Origin: a virus
Lineage: Duplodnaviria > Caudoviricetes
DNA length: 64,000 nucleotides
Reading direction: 5' to 3' (one strand)
Virus record (IMG/VR): IMGVR_UViG_3300033064_000306
Location: 937-64,936 of that record
Of the stretch, positions 31,874 through 48,923 are shown one piece after another. Made by a program: the position numbers and the translations under genes. Every line of letters starts with the position of its first letter. Position 1 is the first letter of the stretch. Below the pieces are notes generated by a model that was not told where the DNA came from, made no database searches, and saw only the letters and a list, made by a program, of their open reading frames with translations.

Positions 31874-31942
31874 AGTTAGGTAGCTTAGTAAATGTTGGAA
31901 TGTCAAGAGGTAACTTACGTAGCACCTCATCAACTATCTCAA

Positions 31943-32074: not shown

Positions 32075-32268
32075 TTCACTCTCCTTTTTTTAGCGGCAAC
32101 AATGCCAACTTCTTGTTTTGGTTCTTTGCTACGTGCTTCTACCATTGCATCTGCTATGGTGTACGCTCTTTGTGCTAATTCACTTTCGGAGTGGTTATCT
32201 TTATATGCTATAACTAACCCCAACATACTAAACATTGCAAAGCAATCCCTTAAATCATTCTCGTTCAT
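32071..32268 (-). CDS. Small hypothetical protein (LRDCFA...AYTIADAM)
   Basis: Coupled ORF; paralog of 28429-28590. Confidence 0.6.
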   Translation of the reverse strand: MNENDLRDCFAMFSMLGLVIAYKDNHSESELAQRAYTIADAMVEARSKEPKQEVGIVAAKKRRVK

Positions 32269-32936: not shown

Positions 32937-33109
32937 TCTTCTATCCTTATCCATGTTTTAACTGCACCTGACATCAAACGCATTTCAGTTTGTGCATTTA
33001 AACAATGCTCATACGCTATTTGAAAGTTATTCCTAACCAATGCGTCATGTGCCAACTTAATTTCCTTAAGTGCTTCTAAATACAATGTCGAATATTCAAT
33101 CTTATCCAT
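32933..33109 (-). CDS. Small hypothetical protein
   Basis: Coupled between polymerase and nuclease genes. Confidence 0.5.
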   Translation of the reverse strand: MDKIEYSTLYLEALKEIKLAHDALVRNNFQIAYEHCLNAQTEMRLMSGAVKTWIRIEE

Positions 33110-34941
33110 TACAAATTCCATTCCTCAATAGCTTTTTTCTTACTGCAATCACCGTAGGATGTACCTACTCCAAGTTCGCAAGTCAATGGAAGTTCTTGAG
33201 CCCACTTAGGTCTCCATTTCATGCACTCGTCAATATACACCATAGCATTATCTTGTTCTTCTTCACGCACTATTGCCATGACTGCGTCGTGTACTGTTAA
33301 TGCAACTCTGTAACGCTTGGCTATACGGAGCATCTGTTCACCAATAATGCACCGTGCTAGGGCTTGGCATAGGTTCTCTACTACCTTACCCCCATAAATC
33401 TTTATTCTTCCACGGCGACTAGCGTAGCTAAACTGTCCTTCTGAGTCTTGTTGGAGGTCTGAATAGTTAAGGTAGAGACCGCTTGGCAATAAGAAACCAT
33501 TCTCCGTAAGGGTAAGTGCCTGCGGTTGACACCCCACTTGCGCAGTTTGTTTATTTCTGAGGGCTTCGAGGGAACTATTAGCTTCTTTCCAAAGTCGGGG
33601 AATGAAAGGGTATCTAGATCTGTAGACATCAATAATCCTAGTCGCTTCCGCATCAGGGATTTCCACCCCAAAAGTTCGTAGTTGTACCCCAAACTTGGTA
33701 GAACCCATGCCATACCCCGCACCGAGGATTGTCGTCTTACCCACAAACCTTTCTCCCGCATCGATCTGCATTTCCTCCTTGCCGTATATAGCAGAAGCCA
33801 TGATTTTGTACACATCTTCTTTCCTCTCAAACGCATCAACTAAGTCGTTTTGTCCACTAAGCCAAGCAACTGTTCTTGCTTCAATTTGTGAACTATCTGC
33901 ATCAATGAGAACGAATCCAGTTGGGGCGACGATGGATTCTTTAAGTAAAGATTTTCTAGGCAGGTTTTGAAGGTTGAGTTTGTCGTCACCACCCCAGCGT
34001 CCAGTATGGGCGGCGTAGTAGCGAAGAGGGACAGGCATCGTTCCTCGTTTAGAGATGTTAATAAATCGCTCGGTTCGGGTTTCTTCAAGGGTGCTCTTAG
34101 TTCCCAATCTAGCGGCGACAACCGCTTGGACACGCTCATCGGGATGGTCTGCCAAAGCTTTGAACCCTTCATCCGACTTTGCAAAGGCATAAGTTTGTTT
34201 ACCATTAGCAGGGCTCTCTTTCATAGGGGGTTCAACACCAAGACTAATTAGTAGTTCAGCTAACTTGGGGTTACTCATCAATGTATCTTTATCTGATATG
34301 CAAGCATCAAGTAACTTTTCTTTACGTGCCTTGACTTGCATCAGATGTTGTTCTAATAGGGGTGTGTCTAGCCGTAGTGTTGGCTCTGAGAACATACGAA
34401 TGGTCAGGTCAATTAACTTTAGTTCTGATCGGCTAAAGCGTTGTGCAAGCAACTGAAATAGGTCATAGGTTAGCTTGACATCGTTCTTGCAATATTCACC
34501 GTACTGTGCCAACTGTGCCTTAGAAAAGTCAGCTCTGCGTAGTCCCTTCGCATCTATTACTTCAGAACCCTTTGTTCCTAACGAATACCGGGAAGCCAGC
34601 TTAGCTAAACTATTACCAGCTTCTAGCCCATCAGTAGCCCTAGCCATACCTAATGTATCTAGCCAAGCCATAGGCTTAATATCAAATACCCAACTAAGAA
34701 TAGCTGAGTCGAACAGGGCATTGTGTGCCAAAGCAAAGCTGGTCTCCCAATCAAATTGCTCTAGCCATGCCTTTGTTTCCTCGAAATTACCTGAGAACCA
34801 TTGGGCTGGTTCGTCGTTATTGGATACAGAAACTCCTATGACCTCGAAGCGATCATCACGAACATACTCTTCAGTTGTTAGCTTGGACAAGCTAAATTGC
34901 TGATCATAATAAGTTTCAAAGTCAATCGTAAAAGTATTCAT
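33109..34941 (-). CDS. polA: DNA polymerase family A with 3'-5' exonuclease
   Basis: DFETY, AHNALFD, motif A DSSQIEAR, motif B RFVGKTTILGAGYG, motif C VHDA. Confidence 0.93.
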   Translation of the reverse strand: MNTFTIDFETYYDQQFSLSKLTTEEYVRDDRFEVIGVSVSNNDEPAQWFSGNFEETKAWLEQFDWETSFALAHNALFDSAILSWVFDIKPMAWLDTLGMARATDGLEAGNSLAKLASRYSLGTKGSEVIDAKGLRRADFSKAQLAQYGEYCKNDVKLTYDLFQLLAQRFSRSELKLIDLTIRMFSEPTLRLDTPLLEQHLMQVKARKEKLLDACISDKDTLMSNPKLAELLISLGVEPPMKESPANGKQTYAFAKSDEGFKALADHPDERVQAVVAARLGTKSTLEETRTERFINISKRGTMPVPLRYYAAHTGRWGGDDKLNLQNLPRKSLLKESIVAPTGFVLIDADSSQIEARTVAWLSGQNDLVDAFERKEDVYKIMASAIYGKEEMQIDAGERFVGKTTILGAGYGMGSTKFGVQLRTFGVEIPDAEATRIIDVYRSRYPFIPRLWKEANSSLEALRNKQTAQVGCQPQALTLTENGFLLPSGLYLNYSDLQQDSEGQFSYASRRGRIKIYGGKVVENLCQALARCIIGEQMLRIAKRYRVALTVHDAVMAIVREEEQDNAMVYIDECMKWRPKWAQELPLTCELGVGTSYGDCSKKKAIEEWNL

Positions 34942-35255
34942 CTATAGGGTTTATACCTATTTTGAATCATAAGTAACTGTTGAGCCTTCAGCCCCTTTAT
35001 TGTTGTTGAACCAAACGGATTGTCCAAGTCATCTTCTTTTTCGTCGGCGGTCATGGTTTGCATAACGGCTAAAGTAAACTCTTCCTTGCGAATTTCTTTT
35101 ATACGGTCAAAAATCATACCTTTTTCGGCTTCGGACATTGCATCACGAAAGTATTCTTTGTAGATAAACTTCCACTTATTATTGTCACCATAAAATTCTT
35201 CGGGGTGCGTAGCCATCCGAGCTAGCACAATTTCAACTCCTGAGTTCATTGGCAT
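34938..35255 (-). CDS. Hypothetical protein
   Basis: Coupled ORF upstream of the polymerase. Confidence 0.55.
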   Translation of the reverse strand: MPMNSGVEIVLARMATHPEEFYGDNNKWKFIYKEYFRDAMSEAEKGMIFDRIKEIRKEEFTLAVMQTMTADEKEDDLDNPFGSTTIKGLKAQQLLMIQNRYKPYR

Positions 35256-35282
35256 CCTTTTTTTTAGGAAACTGGTCCGATA

Positions 35283-35573
35283 TCAGCAACGGTCGTCCTC
35301 TAAATATTCTTTGAGTTTGTTTATATTTTCTTCGTTGATAACAAAAGTCTCGCCTCCTGCATCACGGATGCGTTTTAGTTCTCGTTCTTGGAGTGCGGTG
35401 GTCTTGCCTTTGATGGTCTTGCACTCAATCGCAATGAACAGGGAGTTGAGGCAACATATAATGTCAGGCACACCTGACTTACCAAAGCCATGCGTAGCTG
35501 GAAAAAAGTAGTACACATTGTGTAACTTCAATAGCTTAACAACTGCGGCTTTAACCTTAGCTTCGGGCTTCAT
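35283..35573 (-). CDS. VRR-NUC / Holliday-junction-resolvase-like nuclease
   Basis: PEAKV...GVPDII...IECK...TALQ. Confidence 0.8.
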   Translation of the reverse strand: MKPEAKVKAAVVKLLKLHNVYYFFPATHGFGKSGVPDIICCLNSLFIAIECKTIKGKTTALQERELKRIRDAGGETFVINEENINKLKEYLEDDRC

Positions 35574-35607
35574 TTACTTTCCTTATGTTACTGCTTATTA
35601 TTGACAC

Positions 35608-35635
35608 AGTATAGTCCTTAGCCAGACGAAAGCAA
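35608..35635 (-). promoter_or_regulatory. Sigma70-like promoter for the replication operon
   Basis: TTGCTT-N16-TATACT, downstream of the early terminator. Confidence 0.5.
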
Positions 35636-35710
35636 GTGATTCTGGAAAATTATTTTATAGGGATAAACACCTAGAAAAGACAAAGTGTCACTATGCCACT
35701 TTGTCCCAAT

Positions 35711-35732
35711 AAAAAAGCCACCCGAAGGTGGC
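35711..35732 (-). terminator. Intrinsic terminator ending the early operon
   Basis: GCCACC-TTCG-GGTGGC-TTTTTT. Confidence 0.88.
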
Positions 35733-35744
35733 TTAGTAGGCTAA

Positions 35745-35814
35745 AGTATATTCCGCATCCTACTTGCGTTAGAGGGGAGATTGTGGCTTTCGCCTCACCT
35801 ACCTAACATATACT
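35745..35814 (-). ncRNA. Candidate structured RNA
   Basis: Nested helices and a GGC-GAAA-GCC tetraloop in a non-coding gap. Confidence 0.35.
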
Positions 35815-35848
35815 AGGCTTTAGTAAGTGCAATCAGGAAAACATAATT

Positions 35849-36760
35849 CTACTGCGTAGTGGTATCTCTTTCTACTATGAATAACATATCACCTCTAAAC
35901 TTGCAACCTAGATTAGAGTAAGGCTCATCTTGGTTTATTACCTTGAACATTGCCACCTTTTCACGAATAGCTTGAGGCACTTCCTCCAACTCTTTATACT
36001 TCTTAAGCGTCTGAGTAGCGTAACTATATATAGCTAGACTACCATTACTAAATATAGATACCGCATAGCCTTTGCCTGACTTCTTATGCTCTACTAAGTC
36101 ATTGGCTTCGTCCCATTCGTTGCATAGCTTCTCATGCTTCTCCAACTTACTAGCTACTGACTGAGGAATAGCGGGCAATGTAACTGTATCTATGCCTGCT
36201 TTTCTAGCCTTGTATGCACTAAGCACGTACCCCATGACTTCGTCTTCTGTGTTTACATCATATTTAATATACGAGTAGGCTTGCCTTTCCAAGTCCCTAA
36301 GTTGGTTATCGACCTGACCCTTGATTAAGCCAATGAGTTCTTCGTTCTGCCTGTTAACAAACACCTTCTTAACTGTGCGTAGTGCCACCTTGATGTTCTT
36401 GGTGTAAGTGCTTTCAGGATTACCTCGTTCTTTGCTAATGCGAAAACTCTCTACACCATATACCCATTCTTTATTACCACGAGAGTATCTCTCAGTAACA
36501 GACAAGCCACCCAAGCGTTCGCCGTCTTGATAGACATTAACATAATAAATCTCGGCTTTGTTGTTTCGCTCCATCTTAGTCCCACCCTTGCCATCATCAA
36601 CCTCTTCATAGTTATGGTTGATGCTGACGGAATTCTCTTCTGCCTTGAACTCGCATAGTGGTTTTAGTAATGACACTTGTTCTACAAAACTTTCAAGGTC
36701 GTTTCTAAATGGTGCGTTGCGATACTCTGCCTTGACACCGCTTTTGTCTATGTTAACCAT
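35849..36760 (-). CDS. Early hypothetical protein
   Basis: 303 aa; AGGAGG RBS. Confidence 0.7.
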   Translation of the reverse strand: MVNIDKSGVKAEYRNAPFRNDLESFVEQVSLLKPLCEFKAEENSVSINHNYEEVDDGKGGTKMERNNKAEIYYVNVYQDGERLGGLSVTERYSRGNKEWVYGVESFRISKERGNPESTYTKNIKVALRTVKKVFVNRQNEELIGLIKGQVDNQLRDLERQAYSYIKYDVNTEDEVMGYVLSAYKARKAGIDTVTLPAIPQSVASKLEKHEKLCNEWDEANDLVEHKKSGKGYAVSIFSNGSLAIYSYATQTLKKYKELEEVPQAIREKVAMFKVINQDEPYSNLGCKFRGDMLFIVERDTTTQ

Positions 36761-36769
36761 ACTTCCTCC

Positions 36770-37639
36770 TTAGAAATCAAACTTACTTAAGATAGCGTCG
36801 ACCTTCATCTTGACCGCTTCTCTAGCATTACTGTTATCACGCAGACTGTCGAGGTCGTGGTGGGCGATAGCTGACTGCAAGTCTTTGCGTGCTTGCTCTA
36901 GCTTGGGGTCTTGTGTGATGTTCAAGTGCTTCAGCATATCCACTAACTCCACGCTATTCTCTACTAAGGAGTCACGGAATATTTTTCGTGAGCCGTCGGC
37001 ATTGTCAGTCAACCTTTCGCTTGTGCGGGTTAAGCACTCATGCAATCTACTCCATGCTTCACGCATAGCGTTGTTCAACCTATCTTCGTAGGCGGTGTTG
37101 CAGTTAGCCATAATCTCCGCTTTGGATTCCTCGTTGATGTCGATACGGAAGTCGCCTGCGGTGGGGACAGGAAAGAAACTATATGTGAACTTGAACTTCT
37201 TCTTTAAGCTGTCCTCATTCGGGTATTCGTTTCTGTCGAATAGGTCACCAAGTTGAAAGGCAGCCGCACTTACTAGAGTTGGATACGACTCGATGAACTT
37301 ATCTACTAATGCGTCGTAGTTCTCCTCTAACTTGTTGAGTTGCTCCTTGTAGTTCATGAAGTTAGACATGGGCAACAAGCGTGAGCCGTTGTCAGTCCAC
37401 GGCAGGGTTTGAGAAAGATGCCATGCTCTAGCATTAGCCGCATACTTGACGAGGTTCTCTAACACCCCTGTGCCTGCCATCAGGTTCTTGTTAGCATTGA
37501 CCACCTTGGTCTTTGTCCCCTTGGCTAAGTCAACCTCTGTTGATACACGCTTATCCAATTTCCTAGCAGTCCATGTGCTGATGGATAGCTCGACGAGCAT
37601 CGCTGATGATGCAATTGAAATACTGTTATTCAGTTCCAT
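36770..37639 (-). CDS. Early protein, possibly DUF3150-like
   Basis: Start MELNN after a GAGGA RBS; WTARKLDK...TLPW...F.PVP pattern; next to AAA/VWA genes. Confidence 0.55.
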   Translation of the reverse strand: MELNNSISIASSAMLVELSISTWTARKLDKRVSTEVDLAKGTKTKVVNANKNLMAGTGVLENLVKYAANARAWHLSQTLPWTDNGSRLLPMSNFMNYKEQLNKLEENYDALVDKFIESYPTLVSAAAFQLGDLFDRNEYPNEDSLKKKFKFTYSFFPVPTAGDFRIDINEESKAEIMANCNTAYEDRLNNAMREAWSRLHECLTRTSERLTDNADGSRKIFRDSLVENSVELVDMLKHLNITQDPKLEQARKDLQSAIAHHDLDSLRDNSNAREAVKMKVDAILSKFDF

Positions 37640-37904
37640 TTGATTCCTCTTCGGTTGGTTGGGACATAGTGTCACCTTGACACTTTGTCCGTTGGTTGTA
37701 AAACTTTACAAGGTGTTGGATTGCTTGAGAATAGGTTAAGTTAAAGCCCATCTCTACACCCATCTTGTTTTTAATAGTGACTAACATCTCAACTGTTTCG
37801 GGGTTGAGACTAATGTTAATCTTGCCATCTTTCACTCTGCCTTTCGGCACTTTAGTTTTGATAGGGTCGTTCATACCGCCGTATCCTTCTTCGATTATTT
37901 GCAT
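37626..37904 (-). CDS. Possible ribbon-helix-helix DNA-binding protein
   Basis: AAGGAG RBS; KINISLNPETVEML...TYSQAIQHLV. Confidence 0.45.
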   Translation of the reverse strand: MQIIEEGYGGMNDPIKTKVPKGRVKDGKINISLNPETVEMLVTIKNKMGVEMGFNLTYSQAIQHLVKFYNQRTKCQGDTMSQPTEEESNGTE

Positions 37905-37914
37905 TTGATTCTCC

Positions 37915-39153
37915 TTATTCGACATGAACAATTTTGCCAACGGGTGCGTCAGCACTACTAAAGCGACTATTACCTTTGATGCACCACAACACAGGAGCAG
38001 ATAGAGTCCAATTACTTGGGTCTTGTTGCCCGATGTATCCGTCGGTCAGCATGATTAAACACTCAGGCTTGATGTTGTGCTTCTCCATAAACTTAGGCAC
38101 GCAAGCTGGCTCAGTCCCCCCACCACCCGCAGGCTTTGTGCTTTCGGTTAACCCTGAAAGTTCGTTCTCCATATATGTTTCTCTAGAAGCAACATGGGTA
38201 TCCCAATACAGTAGGTCAATGACTTCGGGTGATACCTCTTCGCAGATAGACTTAACCTCTGATAAGAATTGATTTAGTTCTGCCGAACCAATCGAACCCG
38301 ATGTGTCAATAGCGATTGCGATACCACCTACCTTTTCAGAATAGGATGAGGGCATAATTATATCGGCAGCAAGATAACGCTTATGCAGTCGTCGCCATGT
38401 AGATTGGTCTTTACCTTGCGTCATCGACTTAACGAAATCACGCAACGCTTCCTTCCAATCAATCTTGGGAACAAGCATATCTCCAATCTCACGACTGACA
38501 TTACCACCTAGCTTACCTACAAGAATAGAACCCTGACGCAACGCTGACTCGACTTCTTTAGCGATAGCTTCTTTCTCTTCGGTAGACATTTCTTTAGCAC
38601 CATCCCAATCATGCTCGTCAAAACCTTTGCCTTCACCTTTGATTGGATTATCACCATCACCACCACTACCACCTCCACCGCCACCACCACCTTCTTCCTT
38701 CTCTTTCTCTAGCAGTAGAAAGATTTGGTGTGAGTCCATACCTCGATACTTCTCGTCGATTAGACCTAGCACATTACCTAGTTCGTCGGTAGGCATTTCA
38801 GTATCGTTTTCATGAGGGTCATAGTCACGGATTTGCAGGTTAATCACATAATCGCAAGCCATATTAGCCAACTGTGCGTTCTTCTTATGCAACTTCTCCC
38901 ACACTACCAAGTGACGATAAGCCTTGTGCATATTCTCGTGCAAGATAAGGAAAGCCAACTGCTTGTCGTTCAAGCTGTCTACAAACTTACGACCATACCG
39001 AACATCAAGTCCGTTGGTGCAAGCAGTAGCTACATTGTCCTCGACTGTGACTTTGCCAATCATGAACAAGCCTGAGAACAAGCAATAGTTCTTGTGCTTC
39101 ATTAACTGCACATGACAACGCTCAATGCGTTGCTCTGCTGATAATCTACTCAT
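37915..39153 (-). CDS. Metallopeptidase-like + VWA domain protein (DUF2201 type)
   Basis: HENMH (HExxH); MIDAS DTSGS; GGGT; LTDGY. Confidence 0.85.
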   Translation of the reverse strand: MSRLSAEQRIERCHVQLMKHKNYCLFSGLFMIGKVTVEDNVATACTNGLDVRYGRKFVDSLNDKQLAFLILHENMHKAYRHLVVWEKLHKKNAQLANMACDYVINLQIRDYDPHENDTEMPTDELGNVLGLIDEKYRGMDSHQIFLLLEKEKEEGGGGGGGGSGGDGDNPIKGEGKGFDEHDWDGAKEMSTEEKEAIAKEVESALRQGSILVGKLGGNVSREIGDMLVPKIDWKEALRDFVKSMTQGKDQSTWRRLHKRYLAADIIMPSSYSEKVGGIAIAIDTSGSIGSAELNQFLSEVKSICEEVSPEVIDLLYWDTHVASRETYMENELSGLTESTKPAGGGGTEPACVPKFMEKHNIKPECLIMLTDGYIGQQDPSNWTLSAPVLWCIKGNSRFSSADAPVGKIVHVE

Positions 39154-39163
39154 ATAAATCTCC

Positions 39164-39394
39164 TTAGTTCCATCTTAGTTTTGGACAATCAGGGGCAGTG
39201 TTTCTACCCCTACGCACACATAGTGTGTCTGCAATTAAGTCTTTTAAGCCATGACGCATACAATCTAGTCGTCTGTCCATCTTGGCATAAAGGCTTTCAC
39301 GCAAATCACCATTGGTTCTACTAATACGCTTGACCTTGTGCAAACCCCTACGCTTCCACATACGCTCAAGTGCTACGCTTACTCGCTTAGTCAT
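39164..39394 (-). CDS. Small basic hypothetical protein
   Basis: Likely start MTKRVS with a GGGGGA RBS. Confidence 0.45.
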   Translation of the reverse strand: MTKRVSVALERMWKRRGLHKVKRISRTNGDLRESLYAKMDRRLDCMRHGLKDLIADTLCVRRGRNTAPDCPKLRWN

Positions 39395-39405
39395 ATATCC
39401 CCCTA

Positions 39406-40500
39406 TCAAAATAAATATTGGTGTTTGGTCATCCAATCAACAAAGGATTGGTGTGTAAGGAATAGCTTTTTCTTGTCGTCATCCTTCAAGCCTGTAAGAC
39501 AAAATACCGATTGCAACTCTGTCGGTGTCCGCTTGAGGTATTCAAAGAACTTGCCGATGGTTTGGCGGTCGATACGCTGAACTGCACTAAACGCAAGCAA
39601 GCACAATGCAGTCGGACTTGATGGGACAATGGCGGTGTTTGGGTCTTTGATAATTGACTCCCATGTCGGCAAACTATCCGCTACTTCTACGAATGACATC
39701 AAGTCACGAGCCGCTGGTGCTCCAATCGTGCCTTCTAGCGCACAAAGGGTTGCGTTGTCAGTTACCTTGTTGCGCCCATTAAGAATATTACTTGCTCTAG
39801 CAAGGGAACGAGGGGAAACAAAAGACTTCTGCGCTTCCTTTGGGTTGAAGATATATTTATTACCCTCTTGACTTGGCTCAAGATAAGATGCCAACGCTTG
39901 AGGTGTTTGCTTAATCCACGCAAGGACTTCGGGTGCGATGTTATTACGCAATGCCCAATGACCCCATGAGTTGTCGTCAACTGAACCATCAGGATTAAAG
40001 CCTGCGTGTGGTTTCTTAATATTAATTACGGATAAACGATTACGGGAATGGCTCATCATGTTATCGCCTACCCCGTCGGTGGTGTAGTTACCCGCCGTTA
40101 TCACTATCGTATCCTTGTGCAAGGGGATACCCATAATCATGCGTGGCTCGTTAAGCATTGGATGCAACATATTCTTAACTGATTGATGACCCTTAGTAAA
40201 CTCATCGCAAAAGATAACGAGTGGCTCTTTCAGATGAAAACCCCATTGTTCGTTGGGGTAAATCTTGGTGGTTTTGGTTTCGTGGTTGGGGATTGGGATA
40301 CCTAGTTCACCCAACTCTACATTTGGTACATCGATATAGATGCCTTTATAGCCAGTTCTTTCTACAATGTTCTTGAACATTGAGGTTTTGCCTACCCCTG
40401 GCTCACCCATAAGGTGAAAGGTTACACCAGCACCATGTGTTACTACGGAATCCTCTGCTTCTTTGAGGGTTACGCTACGATTTAATAAAACTTGAGACAT
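39406..40500 (-). CDS. MoxR-like AAA+ ATPase
   Basis: GEPGVGKT, FCDEF, TAGN, SPRS. Confidence 0.85.
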   Translation of the reverse strand: MSQVLLNRSVTLKEAEDSVVTHGAGVTFHLMGEPGVGKTSMFKNIVERTGYKGIYIDVPNVELGELGIPIPNHETKTTKIYPNEQWGFHLKEPLVIFCDEFTKGHQSVKNMLHPMLNEPRMIMGIPLHKDTIVITAGNYTTDGVGDNMMSHSRNRLSVINIKKPHAGFNPDGSVDDNSWGHWALRNNIAPEVLAWIKQTPQALASYLEPSQEGNKYIFNPKEAQKSFVSPRSLARASNILNGRNKVTDNATLCALEGTIGAPAARDLMSFVEVADSLPTWESIIKDPNTAIVPSSPTALCLLAFSAVQRIDRQTIGKFFEYLKRTPTELQSVFCLTGLKDDDKKKLFLTHQSFVDWMTKHQYLF

Positions 40501-40553
40501 ATTATATTTCCTTATTAGTTAGTTATTATTTGGGACAAAGTGTCACTATGACA

Positions 40554-41507
40554 CTATGTCCTTTGTTGCGAAAAATACTTCTTGTTATCGTCATGGAACA
40601 TAGACCCAACTTCCTGTTCTTCAACAGTAAATACTTGGTCACGATATTCATGCTTTAACACTTCACTAAAGAACCTCTTAAACCTAGCGGGTGTGCATTC
40701 AATCTTCTGCGACCGATAGGTAAACTCTCCACCACTACACGCTACATAGGTTGCGAGTTCATACAGAAGGGTCAAGTCCCCAGATTCGCTGAACTTATCC
40801 AATGCTAGAAAAAGCTTTGTTCGGTTCTCGATATCAGGGTTCTTCCTCTCCCAATTAACAAATGGTATGAGTGATGTATCTTTAAAGGTCAGACCATGAC
40901 TAGCTTCAGCCACCTCTATCCTCTCAATATACGGACTCATGCCTAGCATCGTCGCACCATAGTCAATAAATAACTTATACTTCTTGCGTAGTGCATTAAG
41001 TTCTTTGCGGTTGGCTTTATATCTTTTCTCTTTGACTACATTCTCGGCTACATACACTTCACCTTCTTTAACTAGCACGAGTCCGTTGTCCATCAAAAAG
41101 TTCTTGCCCGCCTTGTTGACAAAATACCATTTACCTTTGACCGAATCGATAGTCCCAAGCTGTGCTAACGAATAGGTAAAAAACTGTAACATCGATGGGT
41201 TATGCCAATGGGAGTTCCTTACTTTTATCTTGCCATCAGGAAAGAACTCGATATCGTTGTCACGGTAGAAAGAATACGAATAGGTATCGATGAATGTGCC
41301 GAGTGGGTTGTCCACGCCGCCCTCTACGCTTAACCTATTCTTGTAAATACGAAACCATGTATAGCGACGATTCTTGCCCAATGGTCTGCACTCAGGTGTC
41401 CGACCACGAATAGGGATTACCTTATCGTAGTAAGCCTTGACTTCCTCGTAGGTTGCCAAGGCAGGGATGCCTGCCGAGTTATATGGAGTGTACCCCCATC
41501 CCATCAT
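40554..41507 (-). CDS. Early hypothetical protein
   Basis: 317 aa; GGAGG RBS; stop codon lies inside a palindrome. Confidence 0.7.
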   Translation of the reverse strand: MMGWGYTPYNSAGIPALATYEEVKAYYDKVIPIRGRTPECRPLGKNRRYTWFRIYKNRLSVEGGVDNPLGTFIDTYSYSFYRDNDIEFFPDGKIKVRNSHWHNPSMLQFFTYSLAQLGTIDSVKGKWYFVNKAGKNFLMDNGLVLVKEGEVYVAENVVKEKRYKANRKELNALRKKYKLFIDYGATMLGMSPYIERIEVAEASHGLTFKDTSLIPFVNWERKNPDIENRTKLFLALDKFSESGDLTLLYELATYVACSGGEFTYRSQKIECTPARFKRFFSEVLKHEYRDQVFTVEEQEVGSMFHDDNKKYFSQQRT

Positions 41508-42226
41508 TTACCTCCAAACAATTTGGATTCGAGATAAGCTACTGTGGCACGCAAGTCCATGACTTCTTTCATTACTTCAGTCACTTCGCTAGTCACATTC
41601 CGTGTTCCGTAGGCTTTAGCTAGTGCGTCTTGCAATTCGCTAATCTGTTGTGCTTGCTTGCGAGCTTCGGTCTGCCACTCGACTACACGCTTCTCTAGAA
41701 ACTCAGCCGTATACAACGATGGTGGATTGTCAAACATATCAAACTGACGAGGGTCTTTGGCTACGGCTTTGCCCAATGACTTCGGATTGATAAACTTAGC
41801 TTTCTTACCACGATTAATCGGTGCAGGATTTTGCAAGATGCCACGCTTTTTAGCTTCTTCGCATGGGTAGAAACGAGTAATGCCTGACTGCGGATTAGTC
41901 TGTCTACCAATCAATCCACGAGAAACCCATCTACCTAGCTGAAGATTAACTAGCTTAACATTAGGTTCTTTGCAGTAGTTAGCTACGGCTTCTGCGGTGC
42001 GGTTGCCATTACTCAACGCACTCAAGATGCGGTCTTTCAATGGCTTGATGTGGTCAGGGTAGTTAAAGTTCACACCCTTCTGCTTACTTGATGCTTCAAC
42101 AGGCTGAACTTCCCTAGCTACCAGCTGACGAGGTGGGTAACGGAGTGACTCTATGTCCACTTGCGTTGGTTGATGATTTAACTGCTCTTTGAACAATCTT
42201 AATGCTTCTATGGCTTCGTTTTTCAT
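41504..42226 (-). CDS. Possible winged-helix protein with C-terminal coiled coil
   Basis: RILSALSNGNRTAEAVANY...VNLQLGRWVSRGLIGR. Confidence 0.5.
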   Translation of the reverse strand: MKNEAIEALRLFKEQLNHQPTQVDIESLRYPPRQLVAREVQPVEASSKQKGVNFNYPDHIKPLKDRILSALSNGNRTAEAVANYCKEPNVKLVNLQLGRWVSRGLIGRQTNPQSGITRFYPCEEAKKRGILQNPAPINRGKKAKFINPKSLGKAVAKDPRQFDMFDNPPSLYTAEFLEKRVVEWQTEARKQAQQISELQDALAKAYGTRNVTSEVTEVMKEVMDLRATVAYLESKLFGGK

Positions 42227-42285
42227 AATTGAAAATTTCCTATTTAAGTTGAATAACGGACTTAGTGTCACCATGACACTTTGTC

Positions 42286-43779
42286 CTACTTTGTAACCCA
42301 TAACACTAGTAATACAGGCACTATTGTTATGCCAATCACAACAGTCATGCCTTCCAACATTCCACGCATGAATTTAATCCCATACATGAAATCACTCTCG
42401 CACTTCCACAGTCCAGTTGCGTAGTCAGCATCTTTAAATGCTTCACTAGCACTCCGTGAGGTGCGACCAACATAGTGACGAACATCGCCAATGCCATCAA
42501 AGTTGTTATTACTGCGTAAGTCAAGGGCAATCACCGCAACCCCTGCTTTAATACTATTTAGCTTCTTCATTACTAATCTCCCGAAGTTGTGCTTCATGGT
42601 TCAACAACATTTCTTTGGTTTGCCACACCAACAGACGAGCATGGTCTTTGGTAATACCCTTTTGCAAGGCAAAGTCTAGGTTGCCTATCATGTTGTGAGT
42701 GTGAACTAACAAATCCGATATCGTCGGCTTTGGTTTAATCATATGTCCCCCTGTAATGCGGTTAGCTTGGCTTTCATGACGGCAAGCGTTGCTTCTGCTT
42801 CTATACAACGGAATATCTGCTCACCCTCTGCCGTCCCCTTGGTATGCTCAAGAACAGATTGAAGGTCAGCGATGTTCTTCAATAACTCGCTGATGCGTTG
42901 CCCTTTATACATTTCCCTACTCATACAAACTCCCTTATCCAATCGATATAAACTTCGTCAAAATAAAACCACCTAGCTTGTCGATTCCTATCAGGCACAT
43001 CAATAGGGTAATTAACTAGCAGAGCATGGCTGTCCCACCGAACCACCTTGTAGAACTCAGGCTTGTCAGGCTTGCGGTATAACTTAACTACCTTCATTTC
43101 CTTCTCCAAAAATCCTAGCATTAAAGCCCTCAAGAAAGCCATCAATAAAAGCATGACGAGCTTCGTTAATATAGGGTGCGTCTTTAGTGCCTACTTGCCC
43201 TGTGTGCGGGTCATACTCTTGCATCCAAATCCAACTGCGACTGACTGCAATTTCCATGATGGTTGCGGTCTTGTTTATGTTTTCGTAATCCTCTAATTTA
43301 CCCATCATGTTGTCCTCTTTGGGTTAGTAAAACGCAAATCGTCAGGGTTGTGAATATATTGGTAAGCACCTTTGGAATAAGGAATCTGAACCATGCTTGC
43401 TTTACGCTTGGACTTAGCTACGGCTATCTTGTCGCCACACTTCATACAAGTCAACGGCTTGGACTCGTTGATTAGAAACTGAGCACGCTTGCCGTTCACA
43501 TACACTTGGCAATCCTTGGCGGTGTTGGCTACGCAAAAGTAGCGGTGCGACTCGTGGCTCATATTACGGACTTGTGTATTCATATCGTATTCTCGTATAT
43601 AGGTTGATTGGGACATAGTGTCAGAGTGACACTTCGTCTTTGGTTTGGATACTAGCGAGGTTGATTGCTTCCATCGTTTCCTTGGCGAGTGCAAGGTTTT
43701 CTGCGGTTGGATACTTGAGGCAAAGCATGAATAGCTTTTGGAGTGTGCCTGCTACTTGTGCTTGTTCTTTACTTGTCAT
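42286..43779 (-). CDS. Run of seven small coupled early ORFs (42286-42570, 42554-42742, 42739-42924, 42921-43097, 43084-43308, 43305-43583 Cys-rich, 43621-43779)
   Basis: Overlapping stops/starts and RBS-like GGAG/GGGG/GAGG sequences; functions unknown. Confidence 0.55.
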
Positions 43780-43858
43780 ATAAATCTCCCTTGATTGGGA
43801 CAAAGTGGCATGATGACACTTTGTCGGTTGCATGTTGTAGGCGAATTCCCACTCTATT

Positions 43859-43887
43859 AGTATAACACATTTAGTGGTAAATGTCAA
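43859..43887 (-). promoter_or_regulatory. Near-consensus sigma70 early promoter
   Basis: TTGACA-N17-TATACT. Confidence 0.88.
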
Positions 43888-44041
43888 GGACTTGTCCTGT
43901 AGTTATAGTGTTGCTTGGCTTTATTGCGTGGCTTACGCATCGTGGAATTCCCCTAGTGCGTCGCCCCATCGAGCCAGTTCCCGACCTCAAAATAAAAAGA
44001 AAAAGGACAAAGTGTCAAGCTGACACAATGTCCTAGGCAAT

Positions 44042-44063
44042 AAAAAAGCCCACCTAAGTGGGC
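44042..44063 (-). terminator. Intrinsic terminator
   Basis: GCCCAC-TTAG-GTGGGC-TTTTTT. Confidence 0.85.
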
Positions 44064-44083
44064 TTAAAGGGTTAAGGGGTTAA

Positions 44084-44665
44084 TTACATACCTAGCAATT
44101 CTTGGTGAATACGAGTGAGTAAACTAAAATCCTCGCACTTACCCAAGCACTCACGAATCTCCTTGCGGATTGCGTTGAGTTGCTCCTTAATATCATTACC
44201 CGCCTCTTTTTGACGCAACTCCAACTCCTTGCCCAACTTCTTGGCTTCGTCAATACGCTTCAAAGTGGGTTGAGCCAAGAGGTGAGCCATCTCCGCTTGC
44301 AATTCCTCATCGGCTTTGTCTTCGAACACTTCACGCACTTTTGCCCTTTGCTCGGCTTTTTTCTTGGCTTGCGGGTCATCACTAACAGGGATAGTGATAG
44401 CAGATTCTTTACAAACACGAGACCACTTCGTTTTGATAGCATCTGCGGATTTGCCAGCTTGCTCAAGGGTTTCAACAAAGATAATGCGACCCATCGAGTA
44501 ACGAGCCCAAGACGGCTTAGCGCCCAATACACGAGCAATGGTTGAAATGGCTTCTACAACTGTTTCTTCGCCATCATTCATCGCTAAGGAAGCGGACACC
44601 AACTGGGCATCTTCTTGCTCGTTAAACTGCTCGAGCATTTCTGCGGTTTTGACTACTGATTTCAT
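44084..44665 (-). CDS. Early helical protein, paralog of 45238-45870
   Basis: Own promoter, GGAG RBS and terminator. Confidence 0.75.
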   Translation of the reverse strand: MKSVVKTAEMLEQFNEQEDAQLVSASLAMNDGEETVVEAISTIARVLGAKPSWARYSMGRIIFVETLEQAGKSADAIKTKWSRVCKESAITIPVSDDPQAKKKAEQRAKVREVFEDKADEELQAEMAHLLAQPTLKRIDEAKKLGKELELRQKEAGNDIKEQLNAIRKEIRECLGKCEDFSLLTRIHQELLGM

Positions 44666-44758
44666 AACAATCTCCATAGAGTGAGGTTTAGGGTTTGGGA
44701 CATTGTGTCACTCTGCCACTTTGTCCTTTGCTACATATGGGCGAATTCCCACTCTATT

Positions 44759-44787
44759 AGTATACCACCCTTGATGGGATTTGTCAA
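44759..44787 (-). promoter_or_regulatory. Near-consensus sigma70 early promoter
   Basis: TTGACA-N17-TATACT; shares a 25-bp identical block with the 43859 promoter. Confidence 0.88.
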
Positions 44788-44801
44788 GGGTTTGTCCCAT
44801 C

Positions 44802-45095
44802 TGTTCTAGATTATGGGGGTAATGTTCTGTAATGTTCTATATGGTCGGAACACTCTCTAGCCCTTGTTCTATATGGTTAAGAGGGCTATATAAGTATAAT
44901 GTTCTATTGTTCTATATATGTCCAAAACACTTTTTGAGTTTAAAACTTGCACCGAGTGGGGGGCTCTTTGCTCCTTGACTTTTTAAAAAATCAGAATGGA
45001 GATGTTGGAACATTTAGAACATTTAGAACAATATAGCTAAGTGCTTGATTACATTTGGTTTCTTCTGTTCTATTCGGTAGAACATTACAAGAACA
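44802..45095. repeat. Cluster of 13 TGTTCY/RGAACA hexamers (iteron-like) with an IHF consensus site at 45038-45050
   Basis: Direct reading; AATCAAGCACTTA on the - strand matches WATCAANNNNTTR. Confidence 0.7.
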
Positions 45096-45180
45096 AAGCA
45101 AGACATAGTGGCATGATGACACTTTGTCCATCGGGCTAGTGCGTCGCTTACAACCAGTTCCCTATTATTTTTAACTGGAC

Positions 45181-45209
45181 AAAAAAATCCCCTGGGGTTA
45201 GCCAGGGGA
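45181..45209 (-). terminator. Intrinsic terminator with a CCWGG in each stem arm
   Basis: TCCCCTGG-N6-CCAGGGGA-TTTTTTT. Confidence 0.85.
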
Positions 45210-45237
45210 ATGAAGTAATACTATGCCGACAGATTAA

Positions 45238-45870
45238 TTACAGTCCGGCTACCTGGTAATCATAATCATTAAATATTGCTAGAGCAGCATTTAATGTATC
45301 CTCTTCCAGGCAATTCTTAGCTGCCTTAGCCACTTCGGACTGTAATGCTTTAATGATTTCCATTCTATCTTTCAGCACCAGGGCACGTTTATCCTCAATA
45401 ACAGCAGCTACCTTAGCAGCCTTAGCCAGGTTAGATTTAGTAGCGTTAGCTGTAAGCATAGATACTTCAGCCTGGAGCTCTTCAAAACTGCGCTCCATTT
45501 GTACAGCCTTTTGGGTAGCAGCCTTAGCTCTCTGATCGGCTTTAGCCTGGCTGTCTTTAGCTTTACTAGCTGGTTTAGACAGGCCGTACATCTCTTCAAG
45601 CCTAGCTGTAAATCTTTTCCACATAGATTTAATAGTATCACTATCCAGGCTTACACCTTTTTTAGTAGCGTATGCTGTTTTAACTACCTGGCTACCTTCC
45701 GCCCAGGTATCATAGTCTGTTACATCAATACCATCAGCATCCTGGACGGTTACGTTCCTGGCAAACTGTTCGATAGCATCATCAGCATCTACTTCGGCTA
45801 CTGCAAACATCGTCCCGATATCCTGGAAGGATATGTTTAATTCTTCTGACAATTGGAAGTTATTTTCCAT
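45238..45870 (-). CDS. First early gene; helical protein encoded by CCWGG-saturated DNA
   Basis: 210 aa; AGGGGA RBS; monocistronic. Confidence 0.75.
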   Translation of the reverse strand: MENNFQLSEELNISFQDIGTMFAVAEVDADDAIEQFARNVTVQDADGIDVTDYDTWAEGSQVVKTAYATKKGVSLDSDTIKSMWKRFTARLEEMYGLSKPASKAKDSQAKADQRAKAATQKAVQMERSFEELQAEVSMLTANATKSNLAKAAKVAAVIEDKRALVLKDRMEIIKALQSEVAKAAKNCLEEDTLNAALAIFNDYDYQVAGL

Positions 45871-45928
45871 TTTAGTTCCCCTGTATTAGGTTAGTTATCC
45901 AGGCTGCACCTTGCTACCTGGTCATTAC

Positions 45929-45957
45929 ATTATACACCCGGACTGATAGTTATCCAG
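45929..45957 (-). promoter_or_regulatory. Candidate promoter with perfect -10 and weak -35 overlapping CCWGG
   Basis: CTGGAT-N17-TATAAT. Confidence 0.45.
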
Positions 45958-46497
45958 GATATATCTTACTGGACATGGGAGCTATATAGAATAAGGCGCA
46001 GCCGACGGGTATCAAATTCACCAGGTAGCTAACCCACCATACCCCACCCCCCAAGATACAGATTAGGAGTCCCAGCAATGCAATATACACAGTGTTTTAC
46101 ACGGTACATCACATCAAAAATATTTTTAATAAATTCATAACTTAAGTGATGAAAACAACCCATTCTCTAGCATTATTTGTTATGTACTTATATTCACCAC
46201 TTATGACTCATCGCACATATAATTTTAAAAAAAGTTTATTTGCTAGGTAATCCCGGCCATCTAACTACATCCTATTCTCTAGTAGGGGGTATGATTATTC
46301 TCCTGGTAAGACGTTGTTAATTAACTACAGTAAGGGTACCCCCCTCTTTTATTTTGGGACTCCCCCCCCGGGGGGTATAAAAAAATTTATAATATTTTTA
46401 CTTAGTCACGTGAGTCGTGCTGGGGTGGGCACGAAGATTTACCACCCCACTAAAAAATAATATATACTCCAGCCATACAAACCTCCACTAAGGCTGT

Positions 46498-47127
46498 ATG
46501 CAAATACCGGTCGAACCAAATCTCGACGCACCTATCCCAGCGGGGGCCTATCCTCAAAGAGGGGATACTTATGAGCAGCGACTTAAGGTTGCTGGGAATA
46601 CTGCGCTCCTACTAAATGAACTCGGTGTAGAAGACGATATTCCTACAGATGAAGAAATTGCCCAAGCAAAAGAAATGTTTGAGGCAATTAGACCTGCGGA
46701 CGACAAAACATCTAAGCCTACTAAAGAAGAAACAAAAGCTCTTAAAAAAACTGGGCTAGCGTTAACCCTAGGTGGGTACATTAGTGAGTACGAGAAGCAA
46801 GTAGTCGCTGATAAAGTCCAAGTTAGAACAATTGTGGTTAATAGGTTGATGGAAATTAGCCAGACGGATGACGACAAAGTGGCTTTAAAGGCCCTCGAGT
46901 TGCTTGGAAAAGCGTCGGACCTGTTTACTGAACGTTCTGAAATCACTATTACCCACAAAACTAGCGATGAACTTAAGGCTGCTATTAAGGAACGCATCAA
47001 ATTACTTATGGGTCAGCCTATGAAAGACATCCCAAGTGCTACGGAGAAGCGGCTAAACCAGCTAAACCACAACCAAATGGAAATAATAGACGTTACAGCC
47101 CTTGAAAAAATTGAAGATGACGACTAA
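46498..47127 (+). CDS. Putative terminase small subunit
   Basis: Immediately upstream of terL; ALKALELLGK...LFTE. Confidence 0.6.
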   Translation: MQIPVEPNLDAPIPAGAYPQRGDTYEQRLKVAGNTALLLNELGVEDDIPTDEEIAQAKEMFEAIRPADDKTSKPTKEETKALKKTGLALTLGGYISEYEKQVVADKVQVRTIVVNRLMEISQTDDDKVALKALELLGKASDLFTERSEITITHKTSDELKAAIKERIKLLMGQPMKDIPSATEKRLNQLNHNQMEIIDVTALEKIEDDD

Positions 47128-48661
47128 GTTAGACGAGCTATCCCCAGAAGAGCTGCAATATCTGCTTGATAACTTAGATAAACTGCCTCCAGCGCAGCTA
47201 AGAGCGCTTGATGTTGAGACTGAAGAGGCAATGGAGGTCAAGGACCGTGAGGATTGTCAAGAAAATTTTATGGATTTTGTACATAAAGTGTGGCCCAACT
47301 TTATTGATGGCGAACATCATCAAGAAATGGCCGCCGCATTTGAAAGGGTAGCCTGTGGAAAATGTAAAAGACTTATTATTAATATGCCTCCTCGCCATAC
47401 TAAGTCAGAATTTGCTTCTTATTTACTCCCAGCGTGGTTTTTGGGTAAGTTTCCTAAGAAGAAAATTATTGAGACCGCTCATACAGCGGAGCTTGCGGTT
47501 GGCTTTGGACGTAAAGTCCGTAACCTTGTGGATTCCGACGTATATCAGTCTATCTTCCCAGGAGTTGGACTACAGACTGACTCTAAAGCTGCTGGGCGGT
47601 GGGCAACAAACCAGGGGGGAGACTATTTTGCTATCGGTGTGGGAGGTGCGGTCACGGGTAAAGGTGCGGATATCCTCATTATTGATGATCCTCACTCGGA
47701 ACAAGAAGCAACCATAGCAGAAAACAACCCCGAGGTGTACGACAAAACGTACGAGTGGTACACATCTGGTCCTCGTCAGCGTCTACAGCCAGGCGGGGCA
47801 ATCATCATAGTTATGACTAGGTGGTCTAAGAAAGATTTGACTGGTCAAGTAGTTAAAGCTGCAGCCCAAAGGTCGGGTGAACAGTGGGAAGTCATTGAAT
47901 TTCCAGCAATTTTGCCTGACGGAGCCCCACTTTGGCCTGAGTTCTGGAAACTTGAGGAATTAGAAGCGCTTCATCAGGAATTGCCTAACGGTAAGTGGAT
48001 GGCGCAGTACATGCAACAACCAACATCTGATGTCAGTGCGATCATTAAGCGTGAATGGTGGAAAATGTGGGAAAACAATGACCCACCCATGTGTGAGTTC
48101 ACTATTCAGAGCTGGGATACGGCGTTTTTAAAGACACAACGGTCCGACTACTGTGCTTGTACAACGTGGGGAGTGTTCTATCAAGATAATGAGCGGGGGG
48201 TTATGGTGCCAAACATCATATTGCTCAACTCGTTCAAGCAACGCATGGAGTTTCCAGAGTTAAAAGCAAAAGCGTTTGAGCACTATAAAGACTGGGAACC
48301 AGATGCGCTGATTGTAGAGGCTAAAGCTTCAGGTGCTCCACTAGTGTTTGAGCTTAGGGCGATGGGCATCCCTGTACAAGAGTATGTGCCATCAAAAGGT
48401 AGCGATAAAATTGCCCGTTTGAACGCAGTTGCTGATATATTTGCATCTGGAAGAGTTTGGGTTCCTAATACACACTGGGCTGACGAGTTAGTTGAGGAAG
48501 TTGCATCGTTCCCATCAGGCGAACACGATGACTTAGTGGACTCAATGACTCAAGCTATGTTGCGGTTTAGGCGGGGTGGCTTTATTAATCTGGATAGCGA
48601 CGAACCAGATGAGCCGAAGTATTTTAAGTCGTATAGAAACGCAGGGTACTATAACGTATGA
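47117..48661 (+). CDS. terL: Terminase large subunit
   Basis: MPPRHTKS, LIIDDP, VMTRW, SWDTA, HDDLVD. Confidence 0.93.
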   Translation: MTTKLDELSPEELQYLLDNLDKLPPAQLRALDVETEEAMEVKDREDCQENFMDFVHKVWPNFIDGEHHQEMAAAFERVACGKCKRLIINMPPRHTKSEFASYLLPAWFLGKFPKKKIIETAHTAELAVGFGRKVRNLVDSDVYQSIFPGVGLQTDSKAAGRWATNQGGDYFAIGVGGAVTGKGADILIIDDPHSEQEATIAENNPEVYDKTYEWYTSGPRQRLQPGGAIIIVMTRWSKKDLTGQVVKAAAQRSGEQWEVIEFPAILPDGAPLWPEFWKLEELEALHQELPNGKWMAQYMQQPTSDVSAIIKREWWKMWENNDPPMCEFTIQSWDTAFLKTQRSDYCACTTWGVFYQDNERGVMVPNIILLNSFKQRMEFPELKAKAFEHYKDWEPDALIVEAKASGAPLVFELRAMGIPVQEYVPSKGSDKIARLNAVADIFASGRVWVPNTHWADELVEEVASFPSGEHDDLVDSMTQAMLRFRRGGFINLDSDEPDEPKYFKSYRNAGYYNV

Positions 48662-48921
48662 CAACACAAAAGTTCATGGGTCGAAACCAAATGCTAAAAA
48701 GGCTTGCTGCGCAAGTTGGCAGTGAGGACATGGCCGTTGAGATACTCAAGAACCGAGGACACCTAAAAGCAGATGGTAAAACGTTTACAGCAAAAGGATC
48801 AGCACGTAATGCTATGACTGCTGAAGAACGTGCTATAGATAGAGCAACAAAAATTTCGGGTAAAAGCGCAGCTGCGTATAAGTACAACCCAAAAACAAAT
48901 AGGGCAACACTTAGGAAATAA
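48658..48921 (+). CDS. Small basic hypothetical protein
   Basis: ATGA-coupled between terL and portal. Confidence 0.5.
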   Translation: MTTQKFMGRNQMLKRLAAQVGSEDMAVEILKNRGHLKADGKTFTAKGSARNAMTAEERAIDRATKISGKSAAAYKYNPKTNRATLRK

Positions 48922-48923
48922 TT

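Follow-up and report, generated by a model that had tools for sequence, protein, structure and literature searches.

A 64,000-nucleotide stretch of phage DNA (Caudoviricetes; hereafter the window, meaning the whole stretch analysed, bases 937-64,936 of the 64,936-base virus record IMGVR_UViG_3300033064_000306, which is rated 97% complete) carries a small transcription unit that is packed with the short word CCWGG nearly as far as its protein sequence permits. The gene at the centre of this unit, which we call gpX (45238-45870, minus strand), encodes a conserved protein of 210 amino acids and has 12 CCWGG in its coding sequence. Next to the unit lie 10.3 kb of early DNA that have been purged of CCWGG and of other short words. 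In related phages the words gathered in the unit differ between lineages, and in three complete or near-complete genomes they are words that the early region of the same genome has lost. We suggest that the gpX unit (about 45188-46060) is a cis-acting array of restriction-modification words that also serves as bait, and for this statement as a whole we would put the probability at roughly 40%.

Saturation of gpX with CCWGG

CCWGG is under-represented across the genome outside the gpX unit. The whole window has 58 copies, against 92.2 +/- 9.6 in shuffled sequences, and under a third-order Markov model the observed and expected counts are 12 and 26 in the late arm, 6 and 16.5 in the part labelled region B, 20 and 36.5 in region A, and 1 and 4.5 in the early zone. 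The copies are also unevenly spread: there are 0 in 1-10254, 26 in 10255-32714, 1 in 32715-45190 (15.7 expected), 19 in 45191-46310 (1.1 expected), 12 in 46311-59343 and 0 in 59344-64000. The CCWGG-rich segment proper, 45188-46060, has 18 sites in about 0.87 kb, where 0.91 would be expected from the rest of the genome (p = 1e-17), and is co-extensive with the gpX transcription unit. Besides the 12 sites in the coding sequence, two (45191 and 45202) are in the terminator stem and four (45899, 45917, 45954 and 46021) in the promoter and 5' untranslated region; the site at 46302 is an outlier.

An earlier reading of the same DNA, made from the sequence alone (the sequence-only reading), had called gpX a CCWGG-saturated gene, and this is literally true. 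The amino-acid sequence permits at most 14 CCWGG, since two of the 15 possible start positions are mutually exclusive, and 12 are realised. In 2000 rounds of synonymous resampling at the codon usage of the genome, the number of sites averaged 0.73 and did not exceed 5. Ten of the sites fall in the frame NNC-CWG-GNN and two in NCC-WGG, one of the latter by way of the minority arginine codon AGG. Codon choice in gpX is bent toward making these sites, with CTG used for 7 of 15 leucines (7.8% in the genome, 0 of 18 in a paralogue of gpX described below) and CAG for 9 of 12 glutamines (31% in the genome, 2 of 11 in the paralogue).

Across five loci with a total of 101 CCWGG sites we found no strand bias, CCAGG being on the coding strand in 8-11 of the 19-22 sites per locus, and the bases that flank the sites are near random, which rules out a longer motif around the word. 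Because neither strand nor flanks are preferred, CCWGG appears to act here as a symmetric, double-strand DNA word. The array is kept dense by selection on the DNA itself.

The adjoining early region

The purged early region (34903-45190, minus strand) is made up of leftward genes. Taken together, GATC, ACGT, GGCC, CCGG, GCGC, GTAC and CCWGG occur there 11 times in all, compared with about 15 times per kb elsewhere. Measured against the rest of the genome, the observed and expected counts are 0/13 for CCGG, 0/21 for GATC, 0/9 for GGCC, 1/37 for ACGT, 4/49 for GTAC, 4/26 for GCGC, 17/91 for CCAG, 34/115 for CAGC and 1/7.6 for CCWGG. The purge has a sharp edge at 45190; its other edge is graded over 33-35 kb, across the polymerase gene. 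A dinucleotide bias was considered as the cause and rejected, as the CC/GG odds ratio in the early zone is 0.97. The sequence-only reading had described this operon as site-free. Its near-freedom from CCWGG is real, but the avoidance is not one of CCWGG only, since at least eight short words are involved.

Not one CGCG is present in the 64-kb window, against about 154 copies predicted from base composition, and the word is likewise absent from the genome of one relative, G001. In relatives without the full early purge (L002, L003 and L019) there are 11-15 copies of CGCG per 14-19 kb.

Two further stretches of the window show word usage of their own. Among the replication genes at 20404-34902, TCTGG and CCAGA occur 2 and 0 times (12 and 10 expected), and they are in excess in the late genes, which makes this asymmetric word a second case of avoidance confined to one region. 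The segments 59344-64000 and 1-10254, joined through the contig start, form about 15.8 kb of tail- or fibre-like genes with 0 CCWGG where about 19 would be expected. The counterpart of this stretch in G001 has a normal CCWGG density, and the stretch may be a module from a lineage under genome-wide CCWGG restriction.

The gpX unit in relatives

For comparison we took 18 related loci on viral contigs and another 32 on contigs of metagenomes; some of the contigs are duplicated and some of the genes are partial. At least five CCWGG within gpX were found in 5 of the 50 loci (L012, L006, L025, L028 and L031), which belong to four lineages. One site each is present in L026 and L027, and none in the matched gene part of the remaining 43. 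The five enriched loci have 19-22 CCWGG each over 1.1-1.4 kb, and the enriched segment runs from about 190 bases 5' of the start codon (459 in L031) through to its terminator. Four changes are needed to explain the CCWGG trait on a tree of 37 distinct gpX proteins, and well-supported branches force at least two of them. The sites are mostly at non-homologous codons, with only three site columns shared, between the window and L012 or L006, and the homologous pentamers in the nearest site-poor relatives are 1-3 changes away, transversions included. Few shared columns and varied homologous pentamers indicate that it is the density of the sites, not their position, that is conserved.

The arrangement of a filled unit next to a purged region, which the sequence-only reading had proposed as a module, recurs in G001 and in most loci, and its boundaries coincide. 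In the complete genome G001, a stretch of 1.14 kb contains 22 CCWGG, and the next 12 kb or so have hardly any of the seven words. The purge begins, in most relatives, about 900 bases past the start of gpX, so that the gpX unit is always outside the purged region. The purged region is absent in L002, L003 and L010 and only partial in L018 and L019. In no relative does the gpX unit share the loss of short words seen in its neighbour.

The enriched word itself changes by lineage, from CCWGG to GGCC and CCGG, AGCT or CCAGC, a change that the sequence-only reading had proposed to look for. In L006 and L031, gpX has 9-10 GGCC against about 1.5 expected under the codon control, and 4 CCGG against 0.5. 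Over its roughly 1.1 kb, the L006 unit as a whole has 14 CCWGG, 17 GGCC and 11 CCGG; beyond the unit these words are absent. In L002, L004, L005, L007, L009, L018, L032 and L035, CCAGC/GCTGG reaches 13-19 copies per 1.2 kb in both orientations, with about 1-3 in the flanks, and the units of L004, L007, L009 and L018 contain 20-23 AGCT where 3.4-5 would be expected.

These words can be set against the purged ones in three complete or near-complete genomes, namely G000 (the genome that holds the window) and those of the relatives G001 and G002, and in partial loci. In G000, CCWGG is at 18 for 0.9 expected in the unit and, as given above, nearly absent from the early region; in G001 it is at 20 for 1.45 in the unit and at 2 for 12 in the early region. 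In G002 the unit and the early region have, respectively, 20 for 6.8 expected and 5 for 57 of AGCT, 17 for 3.4 and 3 for 28 of AGCTA, 14 for 3.8 and 5 for 32 of CCAGC, and 8 for 1.15 and 0 for 9.6 of CCGGA. AGCT in G000 is only mildly low in the early region (40 for 62) and is not among the words enriched in its unit. Because the words enriched in the unit are purged words, genome by genome, the unit is tied to the same agents that purge the early region. This match lends good support to one part of the sequence-only reading, the link to restriction-modification, and the most likely agent is that of the host.

Two structural variants of the unit were seen. In most relatives gpX is separated from the terminator by an extra gene of about 80 amino acids (in L004, for instance, at +700 to +940), which the window does not have and which carries sites too in the CCWGG-rich relatives. 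In L042 (1-2897, compared with L013 and L014) the whole unit of about 1.1 kb is inverted between the same flanks, and GCGACGCAC-type box copies are present on both sides of the gpX unit in the clade of L042.

The gpX protein and its transcription signals

gpX is a real gene, with 52 homologues and a mean column identity of 59% over 25 aligned sequences. Its product has no match in Pfam or PHROG and no homologue in 50,697 phage records, and a DNA search likewise gave no match. The AlphaFold model has a mean predicted local distance difference test score (pLDDT) of 84.3; Foldseek against PDB and BFVD returned nothing at E <= 0.001, the best VIA-align hit (Z 7.2) covers a helical hairpin only, and the ESM Atlas gave leads below 0.9 only. 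The protein is acidic (isoelectric point 4.7), and its N-terminal 60 residues have a net charge of -14.

The sites extend into the control signals. The putative gpX promoter (45956-45929, minus strand; TGGATA-16-TATAAT, a consensus match) has CCWGG at its -35 hexamer and just past its -10 hexamer, and another site is in the hairpin of the 5' untranslated region. The homologous promoters in L002 and L027 are site-free, and the sites in the promoter and 5' untranslated region of the window arise by substitution. The predicted terminator (45209-45188, minus strand) has the stem arms CCCCTGG and CCAGGGG. Its arms are CCCCAGC/GCTGGGG in non-enriched relatives and CCCCWGG/CCWGGGG in all five of the CCWGG-rich loci examined; since the arm sequences differ jointly in the five enriched loci, both arms have changed with the hairpin kept. 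Near the start of the CCWGG-rich segment there is a G-rich element, GGGGGGTGGGGTATGGTGGG (46033-46054, minus strand), which is conserved in relatives.

The boundary and the early operon

Reading inward from the point where the gene arms diverge, the sequence-only reading had listed a C/G-tract region, the gpX terminator, a change of state near 45130-45190, palindromes at the boundary and through the operon, an iteron block with an integration host factor (IHF) site, two strong promoters and a site-free paralogue of gpX. Each of these can be placed. The C/G tract is a palindromic C8G6 run at 46362-46375, in non-coding DNA between gpX and the terminase genes; it is found in the window's gpX locus and in L025, L040 and L002, and as a variant in L031. 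The change of state is marked by the last CCWGG at 45191, in the terminator hairpin described above, by the near-disappearance of the short words leftward from 45190, and by the first of the palindromes at 45102-45128.

Also at the boundary is a 29-base non-coding element of paired boxes, GGGAACTGG...GCGACGCACTAGCC (45134-45162, minus strand). Boxes of the form GGGAACTGG...GCGACGCACTAG are almost invariant among relatives whose gpX proteins are about 50% identical. A second, looser copy with a longer spacer is present at about 43944-43985, and it weakens the case for these boxes as the mark of a genome terminus.

The paralogue (44084-44677, minus strand) is a protein of 197 amino acids whose gene has 0 CCWGG. 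It is 28% identical to gpX over 111 amino acids (E 2e-8), and a full HMMER search with it found 35 proteins. The sequence-only reading had let the paralogue back up gpX, a role that its position may suggest. Two consensus-like early promoters of the sigma-70 type, each TTGACA-17-TATACT with 11 of 12 consensus positions matched, are predicted on the minus strand: P1 at 44787-44759, and P2 at 43887-43859 in a 103-nucleotide repeat of the P1 region. A second predicted terminator, likewise a consensus match, is at 44065-44046 on the minus strand.

The palindrome, GACAWAGTGKCA-N3-TGMCACTWTGTC, is 27 bp long. After the boundary copy there are eight others, at 44699, 44006, 43799, 43612, 42259, 40534, 37663 and 35679, so that all nine copies in the window are within 35679-45128, where 0 are expected. 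Most of them are at gene junctions, either next to terminators or immediately past the two strong promoters. Because their half-sites vary without compensation, protein binding fits them better than RNA pairing, and to judge from this sequence pattern they are probably operators. The iteron block (44791-45110) contains TGTTCY 13 times, in both orientations, where 0.4 would be expected, and is conserved in relatives. One IHF-consensus match is inside it (45038-45050), in a window total of 7 that is not above chance. Direct and inverted repeats with an IHF-type site are what an iteron-type origin has, and the block is a candidate replication origin, for which no initiator protein was identified. 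One of the palindromes coincides with a point of contig divergence: in all four sequencing runs looked at, one contig diverges into unrelated sequence at 43825, right after the copy at 43799-43825, which suggests that co-occurring relatives recombine at the 27-bp palindromes.

Genome layout and ends

The non-coding stretch 45871-46497 is the divergence point of two gene arms. The leftward arm comprises gpX and its paralogue, small early genes and the genes of an AAA ATPase (39406-40500), a DUF2201 protein (37915-39153), a protein with a weak DUF3150 match (36770-37675), an Hjc-like protein (35283-35573) and DNA polymerase A; the four with coordinates are in the purged region. Further parts of this arm are a sugar-modification cassette, the gene of a PD-(D/E)XK nuclease and those of an SNF2 helicase and a DUF927 primase-helicase. 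The rightward arm consists of the structural genes together with those of the terminase, the portal and a polyvalent protein. The late arm starts (46498-48661, plus strand) with an open reading frame of 209 amino acids, which has no family match in Pfam or PHROG and is from its position a candidate small terminase, followed by the large terminase (47102-48661). The large terminase is 54-58% identical to the versions in phage 023Pt_psg01, Pelagibacter phage HTVC027P and phage DSL-LC04; a single-protein scan found no close relative. There was no Rfam match within 34000-47500.

The final 63 bases of the record reappear at its bases 8-71, and a single mismatch just upstream ends the match. This overlap of 63 nucleotides in G000 and an end overlap of 127 nucleotides in G001 are both away from the gpX/terminase region, and we read them as assembly closure. 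The full stretch is present in six runs, from viral and freshwater metagenomes of two studies, which may be where it comes from. In four runs, assembled contigs span 38000-47394 without a break or variant, which is not informative on the ends of the DNA in the virion. The contig ends of related loci (22 left and 29 right flanks) are scattered and mark no fixed end.

Three observations concern other parts of the genome. A 9-base repeat of the CACCAC type within the DUF2201 gene (38650-38700) has loose contig ends in one run and is probably a site of length variation between strains. The polyvalent protein of 2072 amino acids (13937-20155), which is of the virion type, combines an LPD39 domain with a DarB-like antirestriction part (PHROG E 6.5e-64) and may be injected together with the DNA. 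Among the replication genes, 26878-31709 is a cassette of three glycosyltransferase-like genes, a radical-SAM/SPASM protein and an FkbM methyltransferase. It is common to G000 and G001, largely absent from G002 and mostly absent from G003, the genome of a further relative; as a correlate of CCWGG richness it was dropped, since two genomes against two are too few.

Discussion

The combination of a filled unit and an emptied neighbour, both in the same words, points to one set of agents seen from two sides. We consider it probable that these agents are host restriction-modification enzymes. The early region would be the DNA that is exposed to host nucleases before any phage protein exists, and the gpX unit and the early region would then respond to the same host enzymes with opposite sign. 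The mode of action that we find most likely is that the gpX unit would be a place where recognition is tolerated and wanted, and where a CCWGG-specific enzyme would bind, cut or methylate. As a sink, the bait would absorb the activity of the host enzyme; as a sensor, the unit would report that activity through lost or changed expression of gpX relative to its site-free paralogue. That the role of the unit is indeed that of a bait, a sink or a sensor is a possibility that we hold only tentatively. We are about as cautious on the general form of the idea, namely that a DNA bait at the head of the early genes is loaded to the coding limit with the restriction-modification words of the current host and is retuned when the host changes.

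Several points weigh against the array-and-bait reading. The gpX family was not found in 185,579 bacterial species genomes. If a genome terminus is located at 45130-45190, the unit enters last and could not be an early bait. A sink is without an obvious pay-off, since the early DNA next to the unit has no sites left that need protection; cutting the unit would expose a DNA end beside essential genes; and sites as dense as these would activate an EcoRII-type enzyme, not blunt it. The inversion in L042 makes the role of the unit independent of its orientation. Not all purged words are enriched in the unit. CCAGC/GCTGG, the word enriched in most relatives, is asymmetric and is to our knowledge not a restriction site, and the coding strand of the late genes has GCTGG in excess (39 observed for 11 expected, and 67 for 14). 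Finally, since the base before CTGG is C or G by lineage, the whole family can be read as SCTGG in both orientations, and CCWGG would then be a special case of that word and not the word of Dcm or EcoRII.

Among the explanations that would dispense with a bait, we regard as unlikely, though deserving of attention, a methylation-gated cis signal, in which host methyltransferases mark the array and its state gates the initiation of packaging or the firing of an origin. The terminase genes are 0.6-1.3 kb away from the unit, and the iteron block only about 80 bp; CCWGG, GGCC, CCGG and AGCT are classic cytosine-methyltransferase words, and lineage-specific words would track the methyltransferases of the hosts. 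Such a gate would also be independent of orientation, which fits the inversion in L042, and would work for a unit that enters late. However, the array covers a whole gene with about 20 sites in 1.1 kb, far above the pac and origin clusters known to us, and the word differs even where the large terminases are 84-86% identical (CCWGG in G000 and G001, AGCT and CCAGC in G002), so that here, in contrast to a pac signal of the P1 type, the signal is not conserved where the packaging enzymes are shared. In addition, a C5 methyltransferase (PF00145) was found in 0 of 4 phage genomes, whereas 9 of 14 controls were positive. We find it improbable that the unit forms, or is placed in, a terminal repeat or a zone of break-tolerant recombination, where breaks would be harmless or would prime replication or concatemers and nuclease sites would accumulate. 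This would account for a unit that is unpurged in all relatives and has sharp, conserved boundaries, it would fit a phage that encodes a PD-(D/E)XK nuclease, an Hjc-like resolvase and an SNF2 helicase, and it would recall the neighbourhood of N4-like genome ends, where, as here, two divergent arms meet. Yet there is no evidence of a repeat, the contigs of four runs are unbranched and the contig ends of relatives scatter; moreover, a tolerance of breaks explains the missing purge and not a saturation of 12 in 14.

The remaining explanations leave restriction aside. That SCTGG is a binding array, recognised in a Chi-like manner by a host end-processing enzyme or else by a protein of the phage such as the small terminase or a regulator, seems to us no more probable than a break-tolerant zone. 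The base before CTGG is C in 18-20 of the 23-24 sites of the window, L025 and L031 and G in 9-19 of the 14-23 sites of other lineages, and it is mixed in L028 and L012; CCAGC/GCTGG is concentrated in the units of the eight loci named above; and in E. coli, GCTGG makes up the 5' core of the Chi octamer. But the sites have no orientation bias and no conserved 3' extension, CCWGG as well as CCAGC/GCTGG being about equal in the two orientations where a Chi-like word would be biased, and the explanation leaves the enrichment of GGCC/CCGG (L006 and L031) and of AGCT (G002), and the purge in the same genomes, unexplained. Selection on mRNA structure, by which a word and its complement would be balanced so as to fold the gpX transcript highly, we consider very improbable. 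The transcript does fold strongly (-236.8 kcal/mol, shuffles -200.6 +/- 5.2, z = -6.9; paralogue z = -1.9), and sites are found within the hairpin of the 5' untranslated region and in the terminator stems; against synonymous shuffles, however, L012 with its 8 sites has z = -0.75 and lineages without CCWGG have -0.9 to -3.3. Stems need no single repeated word, and any self-complementary word at high copy folds extra. Given this inconsistency across loci, structure was rejected as the driver. Equally remote is a neutral drive, in which very-short-patch-type repair of T:G mismatches would push a heteroduplex-prone segment toward methyltransferase words. The enriched palindromes are cytosine-methyltransferase words, whose enzymes are often accompanied by Vsr-like nucleases, but many of the gains need transversions or two to three changes (GCTGG to CCTGG, CCAGT to CCAGG, TTTAG to CCTGG, and both terminator arms), and a Vsr-type drive was rejected on these kinds of change; the asymmetric CCAGC is also enriched, and the saturation of 12 in 14 speaks against it as well.

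Restriction is known to leave gaps, in the form of avoided words, in phage genomes, and in the window its imprint seems to be a positive one as well. If the array-and-bait reading is true, the unit would represent a new class of counter-defence or host-sensing element, and the first device for anti-restriction or sensing that works through the phage's own DNA sequence and not through a protein or base modification. The restriction repertoire of an unknown host would then be readable from the genome of an uncultured phage, and for the window phage it is predicted to comprise CCWGG, GATC, ACGT, GTAC, GGCC, CCGG, GCGC and CGCG; for hosts of the G002 lineage the prediction is AGCT and CCAGC instead. 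Matched enrichment and depletion could also become a search rule for all virus collections. Even under another mechanism, such as a methylation gate, 12 of 14 possible sites would be an unusually clear case of selection for a DNA word that overrides codon usage.

Comparison with known systems

The two halves of the arrangement differ in how familiar they are. Early regions purged in this way are a known phenomenon, of which the present one is a strong example. The site-filled unit with its matching rule is without a described precedent known to us; a literature search found no description of restriction-site enrichment in a phage. Restriction-site avoidance in first-injected DNA is familiar from the early region of T7 and T3 and from the first-step-transfer DNA of T5. 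The window phage resembles these in having an early-end region without words that are normal elsewhere in the genome, with several words depleted regionally in both G000 and G001, and in the strong host-type promoters at the head of the region. It differs in being purged of at least eight words over 10 kb, with an adjoining unit that is enriched in the same words. In Autographiviridae (Murciavirus), motif-free leading regions are documented to decide the escape from restriction (PMC12455610).

For the filled unit, one likeness in form is a methylation-responsive cluster. The pac site of phage P1 has seven Dam (GATC) hexamers in 162 bp, and their methylation controls pac cleavage; at oriC, clusters of GATC serve as a methylation-responsive signal. 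Like P1 pac, the gpX unit is a dense cluster of a methylatable short word near terminase genes. The P1 cluster, however, is 162 bp long, non-coding in function and fixed in its word, whereas the array described here is 1.1 kb long, covers a gene and varies in its word. As to the enzymes that would read the array of the window, Dcm is a methyltransferase of CCWGG, cognate or orphan. EcoRII is described as a CCWGG nuclease that needs two or three sites (PMC2770665). The word is identical and is used symmetrically on the two strands, and the 101 sites of the five loci show exactly this word with no longer consensus, as expected for the target of a CCWGG enzyme. The differences are that dense sites would activate an enzyme of the EcoRII type and that relatives of the window phage use other words.

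T7 Ocr and ArdA are protein decoys of restriction enzymes that are encoded as first early genes. gpX, too, is at the head of the early genes and is acidic, with the strongly negative N-terminal part described above; but here the oddity is in the DNA and not in the protein, and gpX is without detectable similarity to any family or fold. Chi, finally, is enriched where phages or linear DNA depend on the RecBCD or AddAB of the host. The likeness consists in a short word at high copy and in the fact that GCTGG, the word of most relatives, is the Chi core. Chi, however, is used in one orientation and is not avoided elsewhere, whereas in the gpX unit both orientations are equal and the same words are purged next door.

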